The notes: a model not told the origin generated them from the letters alone. 64,000 nucleotides of DNA from Candidatus Kaiserbacteria bacterium (GCA_016217925.1 JACRFK010000004.1:46435-110434), one strand, 5' to 3'. Positions 12,635 through 59,132 are shown, counted from the first letter of the stretch. Numbers and translations: made by a program.

Positions 12635-12673
12635 ACGGGCATCATATCAAAATGTCGGATACAATGGGTTTGT

Positions 12674-14614
12674 ATGGGTGCTATCGTGAACCTGAAAGAA
12701 GCTGGTTCCAAGGCGTTGTACGGCGGCAAGGCTGTCAACCTATCGAAGTTGCTCACTGCGGGATTGCCGGTTCCCTCAGGCTTCGCAATCAGCGTAAAAG
12801 CATTCAGCGGAGGAAAGCTCAATGAGACCGCGACGGAGGAGCTGAGAGGTTTGATTGACGGGTCAAAAAAATATGCCGTCCGTTCGTCCGCAGTCAGTGA
12901 AGATGCTAAAGACGCTTCGTGGGCGGGGCAATTTGAAACGTACTTAAACGTCGATTCGGCCGGTGTAATTTCATCGATAGAAAGTTGCCACAGCACGACA
13001 AAAGCACGGGCTAGAGCGTACGGCAAAGAAATGAAGGGCGGGACAAGATGTGATGTGGCAGTAGTGGTACAAGAAATGCTAGTCCCCGATTATGCGGGAG
13101 TTCTTTTCACCCGTAATCCGGTCACCGGTGCAAACGAATTCGTCATCGAGTATATACGCGGTCTTGGAGAAGAATTGGTGAGCGGCAAAGCCGATCCGGA
13201 GCGCATCGTCACAAATGGAGCAAGTGATGTGCTCACGCCATTCAATCTCGCAAAACTAATTGCTCTTGCAAAAGCGGCTGAACAGGCCTTCGGCTCTCCG
13301 CAAGATATCGAGTTCGCATCTCAAGATGGTACGATATGGCTACTTCAATCGAGACCTATCACTACGGGATCTTCGCCAAATCTATTCGATATCGGAGAAC
13401 CCGCGGAACTGTTCTATTGGGGCCCGTCACGGACGGAAGCTTTGTATATGAGCGATTGGCTCTTAGCTACTAATAAAGTCTTTGTGGAGCAGTCAGCTGA
13501 CTCCTCGTGGCCCAAACCCCCGAAATCACTTACGTTATTCCACGGGCATCAAATGGTGTGGTTGAGTAATGAGAAAAAGTTTCATACGTACGCGGGAAAT
13601 GCATTCACCGCATACCTAAAGACGCGCGATGCGGCTAAAGAATATGAGGAGTGGACGGTTCTGTGCGAACAAGCTGACGAAGCGGCAGAGCACAATTCAG
13701 AAATATTTCCAAAACTCGTTGGAGCGTGGGAGAAAACGATCGCCGCCGAATTCTCTCTGTACGGAGCTGAAACCGTCATTGGCAATATGCTATCGAGGCT
13801 GAACGAAAAGGACCGGCAGGAGGCATGGCAGGAATGTACACTCCCGGACGAGCCCGGTTTTTTGCAGCGGATAGACGAAGAAATATTGGGCGGAAAAAGT
13901 ACTGCGGAACTGATGCTCTCGTACCCTTGGATACAGGACGGTTACTTTGGCGTCACGAACAAAGCGGCGGAATATTTCGATAAGCGTCGCGGCGAGATTA
14001 CCGGTAAGACACCGTCAAAAATCGGTGACGCAAATAGAAGAAAGGCGGTCGCGGCAAGACTCGGCTTAACAACAGAAGAAGTGACCGCGTTCGATTTGGC
14101 CCGCGCACTGGCAAAGTTTATGGACGACCGGAAACAGTGGATGATGCGCACACGCCGCTTTCTCGCAACTTTAAAGAAGAATCCGGGGCTCCAGCATGGC
14201 TGTCTGTACGATAATGGGACGATTGTCGAGCTCGATGAAAAGAAGGCGGCCGATCTCTGGAAAAGATACGTCGACTACAAAACGGTTCAGAGTGACTTAC
14301 GAGGGGTAGTAGCAAGCAGGTCAGATGCAGATATCGTAGAGGGTGAAGTAGTCGTCGTTGATTCTCCGAACGCAGCGGTACGGGCAGATAGTATTCTTGT
14401 CGTTCCCTCGACGAGCCCGAGCTACGTACCACTCATGCGCAACGCGAGAGCGCTTATTACGAACCACGGAGGCATGATGTCGCATGCCGCGATCGTTGCA
14501 CGCGAATTTAGCCTGCCATGCATCGTTGGGACGAAAACTGCGACCAAACAACTGAAAAGCGGCGATACGGTTGTTATGGACCTCGTCAACGGCTCAATAC
14601 AACGCGTCCGCTAA
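12674..14614 (+). CDS. PEP-utilising enzyme (PEP synthase / pyruvate phosphate dikinase N-terminal ATP-grasp domain + phosphohistidine mobile domain; rifampicin-phosphotransferase-like architecture)
   Basis: 646 aa; N-terminal GGKAVNLS nucleotide-binding motif and C-terminal mobile-domain signature GGMMSHAAIVAREFSLPCIVG with the catalytic His. Confidence 0.8.
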   Translation: MGAIVNLKEAGSKALYGGKAVNLSKLLTAGLPVPSGFAISVKAFSGGKLNETATEELRGLIDGSKKYAVRSSAVSEDAKDASWAGQFETYLNVDSAGVISSIESCHSTTKARARAYGKEMKGGTRCDVAVVVQEMLVPDYAGVLFTRNPVTGANEFVIEYIRGLGEELVSGKADPERIVTNGASDVLTPFNLAKLIALAKAAEQAFGSPQDIEFASQDGTIWLLQSRPITTGSSPNLFDIGEPAELFYWGPSRTEALYMSDWLLATNKVFVEQSADSSWPKPPKSLTLFHGHQMVWLSNEKKFHTYAGNAFTAYLKTRDAAKEYEEWTVLCEQADEAAEHNSEIFPKLVGAWEKTIAAEFSLYGAETVIGNMLSRLNEKDRQEAWQECTLPDEPGFLQRIDEEILGGKSTAELMLSYPWIQDGYFGVTNKAAEYFDKRRGEITGKTPSKIGDANRRKAVAARLGLTTEEVTAFDLARALAKFMDDRKQWMMRTRRFLATLKKNPGLQHGCLYDNGTIVELDEKKAADLWKRYVDYKTVQSDLRGVVASRSDADIVEGEVVVVDSPNAAVRADSILVVPSTSPSYVPLMRNARALITNHGGMMSHAAIVAREFSLPCIVGTKTATKQLKSGDTVVMDLVNGSIQRVR

Positions 14615-15183
14615 GCACGGAATACGGGCTCTTCCGAAAGATCTAACTCCGCGCGGACCTTTTTAATCCGCTTCTCATAGTCCGCAACAACTTTCGGAGA
14701 TTTGTGTATACGATAATAATTTCCCGCGTTTTTATACAAAGAGCAGTCAAAAACATCGGCGTCTTTGACCAACTCGATGTACGGATTATCACTGTAAACA
14801 TCTTTATCACTGTGATCGTGTACGCACGACACGATGAGGTCGATTTCTTCGCCCGAAAATCCCCCCATCTCTTCGAGAATCTTTTTTGCCATAGGCGCGC
14901 CTTGATGCGCGTGGTCGGCATACTTCCCTTCTACGATCACATAGATATCGTGAAGCACGCACGCTGTCTCGGCGATCTCTACGTCAAGATTACGCGCCTG
15001 CGCCAAGATTCTCCCAATCTGCACACATCCGGCAGAATGCTTAAGCTCCCATATTATCGAACTTTCGCGTTCGGTGTCAGGAAGCGTAGTTTTGAGAAGA
15101 GTTTCGGCAACGTAACGTTCTATCTTCTCGCTCCTCGCGAGACTGGCGCCTTTGTAGTGATGAAAGTCACTTGGTGTTGACAT
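14611..15183 (-). CDS. HD-domain metal-dependent phosphohydrolase
   Basis: 190 aa; H...HD motif (..ACVLHDIYVIVEGKYADHAH..). Confidence 0.7.
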   Translation of the reverse strand: MSTPSDFHHYKGASLARSEKIERYVAETLLKTTLPDTERESSIIWELKHSAGCVQIGRILAQARNLDVEIAETACVLHDIYVIVEGKYADHAHQGAPMAKKILEEMGGFSGEEIDLIVSCVHDHSDKDVYSDNPYIELVKDADVFDCSLYKNAGNYYRIHKSPKVVADYEKRIKKVRAELDLSEEPVFRA

Positions 15184-15497
15184 GTAGCAATACTATACCA
15201 AAGCGATGGCCCCGCTCGTAATCAACGATAAGCGGGACCAAAATACCTGAGTTTTGTGAACATGAGCGAGAGAGTCTGACTATCTGCCCACGCGATGACC
15301 GCGAAACCAACCATCATGCACAGGCAAAACATGAGGGTCGAAAGCACTCGACTTTTTGACGGGAAAAACCTTTCAACCGCCAGCCAGAGTACGAAGCCTC
15401 CGGCAAGGCCAAGAAACCACATGGGGCACCTCACACAACAGTTACAACTGCCTTGTGTATACAGGGTTAGCAACCGAACGTCAACAAAAACTCTTTG

Positions 15498-15579
15498 TGC
15501 GCAGGGGGGGACTCGAACCCCCATGCCGTGAGGCACACGCACCTCAAGCGTGCTGGTCTACCAATTTCCACACCTGCGC
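15498..15579 (-). tRNA. tRNA-Leu (GAG), class II with long variable arm
   Basis: Acceptor GCGCAGG/CCTGCGC, anticodon stem CACGC/GCGTG with loop TTGAGGT (GAG), long variable arm, T-arm GGGGG-TTCGAGT-CCCCC, discriminator A. Confidence 0.8.
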
Positions 15580-15581
15580 AT

Positions 15582-57965: not shown

Positions 57966-57969
57966 CTAA

Positions 57970-58317
57970 ATGCCAAAAAAGTACCGGCTCTCACGTGCCG
58001 ACTGGCTCCGATTGCCTCGGCCAGTTCAACGTATCCACGGGAGCTACTTCTCTCTTTCCGCCGTCCCCTTTCCACCGCTCGGTGGACCGAGGGTCGCTCT
58101 GGTGGTGTCAAAAAAGATAGCGAAGCGAGCGGTGGACCGCAACAAAATAGAACGAAGATGCCGTGAAGCACTTCGCCCGCTCATAACAAAGATGCGAAAG
58201 CCGGCAGCACTCATTCTCCATGCCAAGCGCGAAGCTCGGGAAGCATCCTATGCGGAGGTAGCACTCGATATCGGGAAGCTGTTGAGGAGTCTCGATGCTC
58301 GGGACACGCCCCGTTAG
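57970..58317 (+). CDS. rnpA: ribonuclease P protein component
   Basis: 115 aa; basic RnpA fold (..RLSRADWLRLPRPVQRIHGSYFSLS..); rpmH-rnpA-yidC-jag synteny. Its stop TAG is embedded in an IR-element arm. Confidence 0.85.
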   Translation: MPKKYRLSRADWLRLPRPVQRIHGSYFSLSAVPFPPLGGPRVALVVSKKIAKRAVDRNKIERRCREALRPLITKMRKPAALILHAKREAREASYAEVALDIGKLLRSLDARDTPR

Positions 58318-58388
58318 AGGCTACCTCAGGTTTTCTTTCTTAGCGCAATAGTATTTCGAGGTCTTTGCTTCCATTGCCTCTAACGGGG
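58309..58388. repeat. IR element #4 (arms CCCCGTTAGAGGC / GCCTCTAACGGGG) between rnpA and yidC
   Basis: The left arm contains the rnpA stop; the right arm is followed by GTACAAT and the yidC ATG 15 nt later. Confidence 0.7.
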
Positions 58389-58403
58389 TACAATGCCCGC
58401 ACT

Positions 58404-59132
58404 ATGATCTCGCAGCTTTTTCATGCCGCGGTGTACGATCCGCTTTACAACGGGGTCACTTTTTTCGTCGGCGTTATTCCCTCTCACGATATAGGGCTCG
58501 CGATCATCGCGCTCACGATTGTGGTGCGGATCATTATTTTCCCTTTGTCGGGGCGCGCCATCAAAGCACAAATGGCGATGAAGAAAATCGCCCCCGAGAT
58601 CGAGCTTCTCAAAGCGAAATACAAGGATAAGCGCGAGGAGCAAGGTAAAGCGATTTTCGCGCTCTATAAAGAACGCGGCGTACACCCATTTTCTTCGATC
58701 GGACTCGTGCTCATACAGTTCCCTATACTCATCGGACTGTACTGGGTTTTCTATGCAGGGGGATTCCCTGAGGTTGACCCGTCGCTTTTGTATTCGTTCG
58801 TACACGTCCCCCCCTCGGTCAATATGGAGTTTCTCGGCGTGCTCGACATGTCGAAGAGAAGTGTCATTCTCGCCGTCTTGGCGGCCGTCACACAGTTTAT
58901 TTACACGCGTCTTTCAATGGGACCTCGCGGGCAAGCAACCGCCGTCGAGGCGTCGCTCTCAAGTGACATGGCGAGGAGCTTCGACCTTCAGGCCCGCTAC
59001 GTGCTCCCGGCCATCATCGGAGTTATTGCGTACACTATTCCCTCGGCAGCGCCGCTGTACTGGGTGACGAGCAATATATTCATGATCATTCAAGAATATG
59101 CATCTGGCCGGCGATTTGACCAAAAAATCTGA
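58404..59132 (+). CDS. yidC: membrane protein insertase YidC/Oxa1 (short type)
   Basis: From MISQLFHAAVYDPLYNG; 5 TM core with conserved ..IALTIVVRIIIFPL.. helix 1 and C-terminal basic tail. The ORF track start (58365) lies inside the IR element. Confidence 0.88.
   Translation: MISQLFHAAVYDPLYNGVTFFVGVIPSHDIGLAIIALTIVVRIIIFPLSGRAIKAQMAMKKIAPEIELLKAKYKDKREEQGKAIFALYKERGVHPFSSIGLVLIQFPILIGLYWVFYAGGFPEVDPSLLYSFVHVPPSVNMEFLGVLDMSKRSVILAVLAAVTQFIYTRLSMGPRGQATAVEASLSSDMARSFDLQARYVLPAIIGVIAYTIPSAAPLYWVTSNIFMIIQEYASGRRFDQKI

Follow-up and report, generated by a model that had tools for sequence, protein, structure and literature searches.

A Pribnow box lying 6-8 nt from the start of first-in-operon genes is the signature of GeneMarkS-2 group C, which comprises 90% of Actinobacteria and 97% of Deinococcus-Thermus genomes, and in which 25-50% of transcripts are predicted to be leaderless (PMC6028130). 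Leaderless starts of this group were verified by differential RNA sequencing (dRNA-seq) in Mycobacterium tuberculosis, Corynebacterium glutamicum and Deinococcus deserti, the last with 167 leaderless genes among 262 mapped (PMC6028130). Within the Parcubacteria, an anti-Shine-Dalgarno (anti-SD) motif was found in only 48% (Tsurumaki et al. 2022, PMC9297842), and the lineages without it overlap the group without uL1 (PMC9297842). In this study, we analyzed a 64,000-nt stretch of DNA from a Candidatus Kaiserbacteria bacterium (GCA_016217925.1 JACRFK010000004.1:46435-110434), hereafter the window, with a focus on a -10-like box that recurs immediately upstream of start codons and on short palindromic elements inserted at such starts. 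The original prediction, made from this sequence, had held that a GGnTACAAT box 6-11 nt before many start codons implies widespread leaderless mRNAs.

The RuvB protein encoded at 49477-50490 is 97% identical to a protein of the Candidatus Kaiserbacteria metagenome-assembled genome MFKY01000006, and gene order is shared over 38-60 kb between the window and about 20 more genomes of this group, with DNA identities of 69-85%. By sequence comparison, this identity and the syntenic relatives place the host, an ultra-small groundwater bacterium, among Candidatus Kaiserbacteria-like members of the candidate phyla radiation (Parcubacteria/Paceibacteria), a very large and almost uncultured bacterial branch with reduced ribosomes. 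The window has a G+C content of about 54% and contains seven tRNAs, with no other RNA match (Rfam at gathering score; ARAGORN).

Position and shape of the box

The box was defined as TANNNT ending 5-11 nt before an ATG. Starts were taken either from a curated table of 62 window genes, in which they had been picked partly with knowledge of the motif, or by a motif-blind rule (the 5'-most ATG of each coding open reading frame, ORF; 61 window genes), with internal ATGs as controls. By the motif-blind rule the box preceded 22/61 genes versus 24/762 internal ATGs (3.1%; odds ratio 17, p = 6e-15), with a spacer peak at 6-8 nt, an enrichment far above chance. Among the relatives, which are orthologous regions whose counts measure conservation and are not independent samples, it preceded 109/238 starts versus 150/3701 control ATGs (4.1%; p = 8e-73), and the spacer distribution had a sharp mode at 6 nt. 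Among the curated starts, 28 of the 62 carry the box. The word TACAAT itself is not over-represented in the window (17 occurrences versus 16 expected), and the signal lies in its position, not in its frequency. Even without gene calls, 13 of the 14 TA[CT]AAT-N5-11-ATG sites start an ORF of at least 100 aa, versus 19% of all ATGs. Hexamers of the form TA...T were enriched 11.2-fold, as compared with 0.6-2.8-fold for classes of similar composition (AT...T, TT...T, TA...A, CA...T, and others), and Paenibacillus control loci analyzed with the same script showed no enrichment of the box (12.2% versus 10.9%).

Pfam domains begin at residues 1-8 of the encoded proteins (e.g., RuvA_N at 1-61, L34 at 3-46, N_methyl at 1-27, and the ArgRS N-domain at 4-84), and the box-adjacent ATGs are therefore real starts. 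The same searches upheld the gene names that had been proposed, namely PEP-utilising enzyme, ArgRS, N-methyl pilin, PilB/T2SSE, receiver domain, PBP1A, YidC, L34, RuvA and YebC. All 28 box-associated starts are ATG, partly by construction since candidates were picked as ATGs, and GTG starts occur only at coupled or restart positions.

A logo built on the 109 non-independent sites from relatives, with TA...T fixed by the search, has A in 59% of sites at position 4 and in 66% at position 5, and its most frequent hexamers are TACAAT, TAGAAT, TATCAT, TACGAT, TATACT and TATAAT. Upstream of the hexamer there is only a weak TGn/G extension, with G in 49% of sites at -4 and in 46% at -2. No -35 signal was found in this logo, the information being at most 0.15 bit everywhere from -30 to -8; elements inserted immediately 5' of the box are tolerated, which bears on the missing -35. 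The proposal that the box is usually preceded by GG holds for about half of the 28 boxes, which have GG within 4 nt upstream, and fails for the remainder. Moreover, the G run of PBP1A and orf156 (both cGGGATACAAT) and of yidC (GGGGTACAAT) is the terminus of an inserted palindromic element.

The box as a probable promoter and the initiation of translation

Several lines of evidence argue that the box is a promoter and not a ribosome-binding site. Its selective positions (T1, A2, T6, and A at 4-5) are the signature of a sigma-70 -10 element. Box and spacing are kept in orthologues while the flanking upstream DNA diverges (pilB 17/17, PBP1A 8/8, rpmH 6/6, yebC 13/18), in contrast to leadered or coupled genes, whose orthologues rarely have a box at the ATG (dnaA 0/7, ruvB 1/18, rnpA 0/6). 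The box is present at 2/15 tightly coupled genes (i.e., those whose start overlaps the preceding stop or lies at most 12 nt from it) versus 25/46 others (p = 0.007), and at 10/14 of the divergently arranged genes of the curated table. In eight genomes the same box, G-rich prefix included, is separated by 8 nt from the mature 5' end of tRNA-Lys, which excludes a purely translational role. In the window it reads gtgTAGAGT (38006-38019, +; tRNA-Lys at 38020-38090), and at the same spacing TATAGT is found in L003, L010 and L011 and TAAAAT in L014 and L017 (L-numbers are labels of fetched relative or metagenome loci). Among tRNA genes as a whole, 13/18 have a box at 6-25 nt versus 5/18 at 30-49 nt. 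Lastly, leadered genes have the box farther off at a conserved distance. The contrast case is dnaA (57570-57596, -), with a conserved cgTATAATg 18 nt before the ATG and a short leader, which again argues for a promoter. Upstream of rplS (16772-16824, -), 46 nt separate a TATAGT box from the ATG, and a G+C-rich hairpin within this interval (gccctgcctgcgccgaggcttcggcaggcaggcg) could be a ribosomal-protein leader; leadered genes therefore exist in the same genome.

Taken together, these observations make it likely that the box is a sigma-70-type -10 element and that first genes are expressed from leaderless or near-leaderless mRNAs. The distance from a -10 box to the transcription start is usually about 7 nt, so that transcription would begin with the A of the ATG where the spacer is 6 nt and would yield 1-5-nt leaders where it is 7-11 nt. 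In the mechanism that we propose, the G-n-G-R-TA[C/T]AAT box would serve as the -10 element of a housekeeping sigma-70-type promoter. It ends 6-8 nt (range 5-11) before the ATG in about 45% of genes and in about 55% of those not tightly coupled. RNA polymerase would start about 7 nt past the box, so that the 5' end would coincide with the A of the ATG or precede it by 1-5 nt, and the resulting leaderless mRNAs would be bound directly by 70S ribosomes, by analogy with other leaderless systems. Downstream cistrons, with starts -4 to +12 nt from the preceding stop, would most likely be translated by termination-reinitiation coupling. The leaderless reading of the original prediction is thus supported by the type of box, its spacing, its conservation and its distribution over gene classes; where transcription starts and how ribosomes are recruited are what we infer from the sequence.

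The original prediction also held that only a minority of genes have a Shine-Dalgarno (SD) sequence. SD sequences are indeed few, and this statement was too cautious, as SD-like words show no enrichment at all. SD 4-mers (GGAG, GAGG or AGGA at the right distance) precede 5/61 starts (8.2%) versus 77/762 control ATGs (10.1%) in the window, and 6.3% versus 10.8% in the relatives, as compared with 43.5% versus 9.9% in the Paenibacillus positive control with the same script. The GAGGAGG reported before 22009 is present as quoted, a single case that could be due to chance. Upstream of genes that lack a box, there is no G-rich peak and A is mildly enriched. No use of Shine-Dalgarno pairing can be detected in this lineage. 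In the secE-nusG-rplK cluster on the minus strand, rplK (7854-8276) is followed by argS (6150-7826), with rplA not next, which appears to fit the uL1-lacking Parcubacteria.

Some observations weigh against leaderless first genes in a lineage devoid of SD initiation. Weak boxes among the 28, such as TAAGAT and TAGTGT, are possibly fortuitous, and a background of 3-4% would yield about 2 of the 28 by chance. Spacers of 9-11 nt (PBP1A, yidC, orf156, orf347) predict leaders of 3-5 nt, which are not strictly leaderless. Several boxed genes (argS, orf325, yidC) lie 27-90 nt behind a co-directional gene, and read-through RNAs with an internal ATG must also exist. The strong figures from the relatives reflect conservation among orthologous regions. 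Finally, the 3' end of the 16S rRNA is absent from the window and the fetched loci, which leaves loss of the anti-SD a possibility for this genome.

Read-through RNAs would have a larger part if the boxes were real promoters whose leaderless RNAs are a minor species, with most protein made from longer transcripts by SD-independent leadered initiation (S1-dependent, A-rich-dependent, or by coupling). We consider this unlikely. The many co-directional genes with small gaps are in its favor, as are the 13 clearly coupled genes, the 18 genes with only a distant box (some by chance), and the mild A enrichment, with no G enrichment, upstream of genes without a box. However, the divergent pairs with starts at 12634/12674, 27774/27995, 35333/35430, 46034/46668 and 57572/57825 leave no space for an upstream promoter, 10/14 divergent genes being boxed, and the exact spacing kept across relatives points to selection on the box-to-ATG distance itself.

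It is still less probable that the TAYAAT box is a non-SD ribosome-binding or translation-enhancing element, possibly pairing with an altered 16S 3' tail, on leadered mRNAs. In the absence of SD some other start-site signal is needed, and the box stands at the 6-8 nt where a ribosome-binding site would sit; it also precedes several co-directional genes with short gaps (e.g., argS and orf325), and half of the Parcubacteria reportedly have no anti-SD. Against this stand its rarity at tightly coupled genes (2/15 versus 25/46), since the motif of group B genomes occurs before all genes (PMC6028130), its occurrence with the G-rich prefix 8 nt before tRNA genes, its longer conserved distances at dnaA (18 nt) and rplS (46 nt), and selective positions that coincide exactly with T1, A2 and T6 in the -10 hexamer of sigma-70. 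An artefact, i.e., chance matches in A/T-richer upstream DNA or starts fitted to the motif, might be suspected from the looseness of TANNNT, the ordinary frequency of TACAAT and the partly motif-aware curated list, but is already refuted by the enrichment at motif-blind starts over internal ATGs, the flat same-composition hexamers and Paenibacillus negative control, the Pfam N-termini that match the starts, and the clear orthologue footprints.

The preferred reading, a -10 element that directs leaderless or near-leaderless transcripts, applies to the following sites, given as box, spacer, and coordinates from box to ATG. Every example quoted in the original prediction was recovered. On the plus strand these are the PEP-utilising enzyme gene (TACAAT at 12660-12665, 8 nt, ATG at 12674; 12660-12676), the type IV pilin gene (cggTACAAT, 8 nt, 27981-27997; ATG at 27995), orf156 (TACAAT, 9 nt, 28532-28549; ATG at 28547), where a degenerate type B element (28473-28530) supplies the preceding cggga as its terminus, ruvA (ggTAAACT, 6 nt, 35418-35432; start at 35430), the LTD-domain orf325 with its ATG at 36037 (ggTATACT, 6 nt, 36025-36039), 28 nt behind the ruvA stop, pilB (TACAAT, 7 nt, 46655-46670; ATG at 46668), the response regulator gene (cggTACAAT, 8 nt, 48704-48720; ATG at 48718), yebC (TAAACT as in ruvA, 6 nt, 51061-51075; start at 51073), the PBP1A gene (TACAAT, 11 nt, 52416-52435; ATG at 52433), with an expected leader of about 4-5 nt, rpmH (gggTATAGT, 7 nt, 57812-57827; ATG at 57825), and yidC (TACAAT, 9 nt, 58389-58406; ATG at 58404), where the preceding cgggg is a type A terminus. 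On the minus strand the quoted example is argS (ggTACAAT, 6 nt, 7824-7838; ATG at 7826), within the 27-nt gap behind rplK.

A further plus-strand box precedes the LAGLIDADG-like orf259 (TACAAT, 6 nt, 31245-31259), and the remaining ones are on the minus strand. These precede a DUF11-like surface protein gene (TATAAT, 6 nt, 1960-1974), ileS (TACGAT, 7 nt, 5985-6000), an adenosyltransferase-like gene divergent from that of the PEP-utilising enzyme (TATGAT, 6 nt, 12632-12646), the genes for an HD-domain protein (ggTATAGT, 8 nt, 15181-15197) and the LAGLIDADG-like orf225 (TAGCAT, 6 nt, 16257-16271), pilM (gggTATAAT, 7 nt, 19724-19739), and the genes for a tRNA-binding domain protein (TAAACT, 7 nt, 20131-20146), lumazine synthase (TAGAGT, 8 nt, 23751-23767) and an aldo/keto reductase (the weaker TAAGAT, 7 nt, 25627-25642). 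They also precede orf217 (the weaker TAGTGT, 7 nt, 27772-27787), rpsT (TAGTAT, 8 nt, 35331-35347), a SpoU methylase gene (TAGTAT, 5 nt, 37528-37541), orf211 (TACAAT, 5 nt, 41713-41726; at the same place, TACAAT in the L003 orthologue and TATACT/TACTGT in L002), orf416 (TATCAT, 8 nt, 46032-46048) and orf347 (ggaTATAAT, 9 nt, 62578-62595).

Palindromic insertion elements at start codons

The window contains ten copies of short palindromic elements of two types, with perfect terminal arms of 12-15 nt and a shared terminal pattern YCCCG...CGGGR. Type A is defined by TCTAACGGG, present in 12 copies, all of them forming inverted pairs CCCGTTAGA(A/G)(G/A)C ... TCTAACGGG around intergenic stretches of 28-115 nt. 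Type B (CCCGCYCTTTC ... GAAAGRGCGGG) accounts for four elements. Three comparisons of filled and empty sites identify the palindromic pairs as insertions. At the PBP1A gene, L021, L019, L002 and L004 read ...aaaaaga-TACAAT-N11-ATG without interruption, and the window carries a 96-nt insert between repeats of (A)TACA. A type B copy occupies the pilB -10 box in L001 and L017, the window and the other relatives being empty. At jag, the empty site is a plain GGTATAGT-N6-ATG in L008, L014 and L017. Further copies were found in L001 (7380-7440), L017 (5810-5880 and 7690-7815), and L081-L200.

A scan of metagenomes for type A termini returned at least 120 matching stretches, and the matches listed comprise 117 unique copies of 27-122 nt. 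Among these 117, an exact 4-bp duplication (TGAA, TTCA, TCAA, TGAG, TGGA, and others) flanks 71, and the outermost base pair is C..G in 63 and T..A in 47. Fifty-five of the 117 copies listed lie directly against the ATG or GTG of an ORF of 60 or more codons, as compared with 0 and 5 in control frames, the start codon being rebuilt from the terminal A or G plus the duplicated TG. Of these start-abutting copies, still among the matches listed, 40/55 still have the original ATG or GTG at their opposite end, with a -10 box 5-11 nt upstream of it in 16 of the 40. The elements fall into sub-families with conserved interiors, one of which is found, in a constant orientation, before 13 genes whose N-terminal sequences visibly differ. 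The existence of these elements, their mobility and their association with start codons are thereby established. In the metagenome loci that carry them, the box stands at 5-11 nt before 153/485 long ORFs versus 9.5% of controls (odds ratio 4.4, p = 5e-38), with a spacer peak at 6-9 nt, and SD shows a weak enrichment (16.7% versus 10.3%). Where such loci are Parcubacteria, the architecture would extend beyond one genus.

In the window, six copies sit at start codons, and each has a frame of 21-38 codons through the whole element (one of which now begins with ACG). Each frame stops either at the right-terminus TAA, which leaves 4 nt to the rebuilt start, or within an ATGA overlap. As RNA, the termini would form a stem of 13-15 bp (folding free energy of -25 to -46 kcal/mol, z-scores of -4 to -6.6) that covers the first bases of the rebuilt start. 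Element lengths are biased towards n = 1 mod 3 (25/55 versus 14/62, p = 0.011; p = 0.06 against one third), which gives moderate support only.

The six start-codon copies are all on the minus strand except for that of jag. A type A copy of 82 nt lies between the ileS stop and recO (3015-3096), and its left ATGTA copy begins a 27-codon upstream ORF (uORF), which terminates at the TAA of TTCTAACGGG and leaves 4 nt to the recO ATG. Another of 115 nt lies between secE and nusG and touches the nusG ATG (8902-9016). Two type B copies of 56 nt are found at the starts of orf110 (17453-17508; CCCGCCCTTTC..GAAAGAGCGGG) and of a ruvX-like gene (20608-20663), with uORFs that end in ATGA overlaps. In the Glu/Leu dehydrogenase gene, a 76-nt type A copy follows codon 4-5 (39526-39601), and a 28-codon uORF now runs from the former leaderless start (TACTAT, 6 nt, ATG at 39616), with a restart at GTG 39525. 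The jag copy (type A, 79 nt, 59178-59256, +) lies in the start codon; its left copy keeps ggTAGAGT, 7 nt, and the ATG (59172), which opens a 26-codon uORF, with a restart at GTG 59257.

The other four copies are on the plus strand. They are a degenerate type B in the orf156 -10 box (28473-28530; flanks gATACt / ATACAAT), a minimal type A hairpin of 28 nt in the ruvB leader (49403-49430), found at the same site in L002, L003, L006, L012 and L016, a type B of 96 nt inside the PBP1A -10 box (52319-52414), and a type A of 78 nt that fills the rnpA-yidC gap (58310-58387), with the rnpA stop TAG in its left terminus and the yidC -10 box abutting its right terminus.

In the scenario suggested by these sites, the retained original start would open a short ORF that runs through the hairpin and stops 4 nt before, or overlapping, the rebuilt start, allowing ribosomes to reinitiate there. 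We infer that only insertions which leave the downstream gene translatable by termination-reinitiation survive in compact, SD-less genomes. A broader proposal, which we hold as somewhat less likely than not, is that the lineage gave up SD initiation in favor of leaderless first cistrons and reinitiated downstream ones, and that the elements YCCCGTTAGAAGC...GCTTCTAACGGGR and those of type B survive by this means, expression being kept by reinitiation. Complete SD loss and the reinitiation mechanism are, at this stage, conjecture.

Other identities were also explored for the elements. Integron attC sites were rejected because the core order is reversed (GTTAGAA ... TTCTAAC, as against RYYYAAC ... 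GTTRRRY) on both strands and the flanking genes are housekeeping ones, and a motif similar to DNA-uptake sequences would leave the duplications, the empty sites and the exact abutment on start codons unexplained. Reading the palindromic pairs as pure RNase III processing stems was considered as well. Insertion into the open-complex bubble of leaderless promoters was rejected as an account of their placement, as three or four of the six start-codon copies are at coupled, non-promoter starts; a sequence preference together with a survival filter is the simpler reading. No pair of termini encloses an ORF or transposase that might represent an autonomous partner in the window and fetched loci (about 1.2 Mb sampled), Rfam at an E-value of at most 1 gave only a chance microRNA match for one element copy, and a literature search on the termini and on miniature inverted-repeat transposable elements (MITEs) in the candidate phyla radiation returned nothing relevant. 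The elements apparently constitute two undescribed, MITE-like and presumably non-autonomous families. In the divergent dnaA-rpmH intergenic region there is also a 28-nt inverted repeat (57675-57702 and 57758-57785, 96% complementary, 55-nt loop), which may represent either a different type of element or a hairpin with a regulatory function.

Other features of the window and comparison with known systems

Between the response regulator gene and ruvB lies a conserved structured non-coding region of about 135 nt (49205-49350, +). It is orthologous in L001-L004, L007-L012, L015 and L019, with 99% identity to L003 as compared with about 75% for the DNA overall, and its consensus structure comprises 38 pairs; compensatory changes affect 15 of these and extend to an entire 9-bp helix that is exchanged between two versions. 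Rfam at an E-value of at most 1 gave no match for 49090-49480; the region is possibly a divergent SRP-like or other housekeeping RNA. Two free-standing LAGLIDADG-like ORFs both have the box 6 nt before the ATG. Of these, orf225 (15582-16259, -) matches Pfam LAGLIDADG_3 and adjoins a tRNA-Leu (15497-15579), and orf259 (31257-32036, +) overlaps a tRNA-Arg (31948-32019) on the opposite strand; in the latter a YWAEG motif was read as LAGLIDADG-like, and Pfam gave a weak Sleeping-Beauty HTH match and no LAGLIDADG family. The dnaA-dnaN intergenic region (55991-56207) has an A/T-rich stretch (ctaatagtagtaatagtatttatata) kept in all relatives, beside DnaA-box-like sequences (..tccacac..), and could be the replication origin. 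At the end of the window, a TraG/VirB4-like P-loop ATPase gene (62630-63976, -) is followed by tightly coupled genes on the same strand without Pfam matches (59827-62580), which could be part of a type IV secretion or conjugation-like machinery of Patescibacteria.

Leaderless initiation combined with stop-start coupling would offer a concrete and testable answer to the question of how translation starts in anti-SD-less Parcubacteria, and gene starts in these genomes should be predicted with a leaderless model. The palindromic elements at start codons, if confirmed, would show how a mobile element persists in a very compact genome, and are the more novel lead, the leaderless mechanism being itself familiar from Actinobacteria and Deinococcus. 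Our literature search retrieved no account of leaderless mRNAs for the candidate phyla radiation, Patescibacteria, Saccharibacteria or Nanosynbacter, and the sole set of transcription start sites from the candidate phyla radiation that it found was that of Nanosynbacter lyticus.

Among known systems, the closest is that of group C (Mycobacterium tuberculosis, Corynebacterium glutamicum, Streptomyces, Deinococcus deserti). As in these organisms, a -10 box lies 6-8 nt before first genes, a large share of genes is affected (about 45% here), AUG starts predominate, and the box is scarce before operon-internal genes (2/15 versus 25/46; rnpA 0/6 orthologues). On the other hand, the other genes of group C genomes use SD, whereas here SD is not enriched and downstream genes are apparently stop-start coupled; the Kaiserbacteria also stand outside the lineages reported (Actinobacteria, Deinococcus-Thermus, and a few Proteobacteria and Firmicutes). 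The comparison thus supports reading the window as a leaderless architecture of the known group C type plus an unusual trait, no SD use. The box is likewise similar to the sigma-A consensus of C. glutamicum, TGNGNTA(C/T)AATGG, in its TA[C/T]AAT core, in G at -4 and -2, and in a -35 that is weak or absent; the phylum is unrelated, and the likeness is drawn from the logo of 109 non-independent sites. With SD-poor leadered genomes (Bacteroidetes, group B; cyanobacteria) the window shares the lack of SD enrichment before starts. However, these genomes have leadered mRNAs and an A-rich motif before all genes, including operon-internal ones, while the motif described here is a -10 box, confined to uncoupled genes and also found before tRNAs. 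The anti-SD-less Parcubacteria belong to the same group as our host, and rplA is missing after rplK in the window; Tsurumaki et al. report a feature of the rRNA and are silent on mRNA organisation (PMC9297842), whereas the mRNA side is described here.

As for the palindromic elements, the Correia/NEMIS elements of Neisseria, the Rickettsia palindromic elements (RPEs), ERIC and REPINs are all small palindromic insertion elements. Like them, the elements of the window are short (27-122 nt), non-coding and multi-copy, with inverted termini, a hairpin and target duplications; they are co-transcribed with their neighbours, and a few copies are in frame, as are RPEs. They differ in their termini (YCCCGTTAGAAGC.. 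and CCCGCYCTTTC..), in a 4-bp duplication of the TNNA type, in interiors that comprise several unrelated sub-families, and in that about half of the copies are placed exactly on a start codon, which they regenerate.

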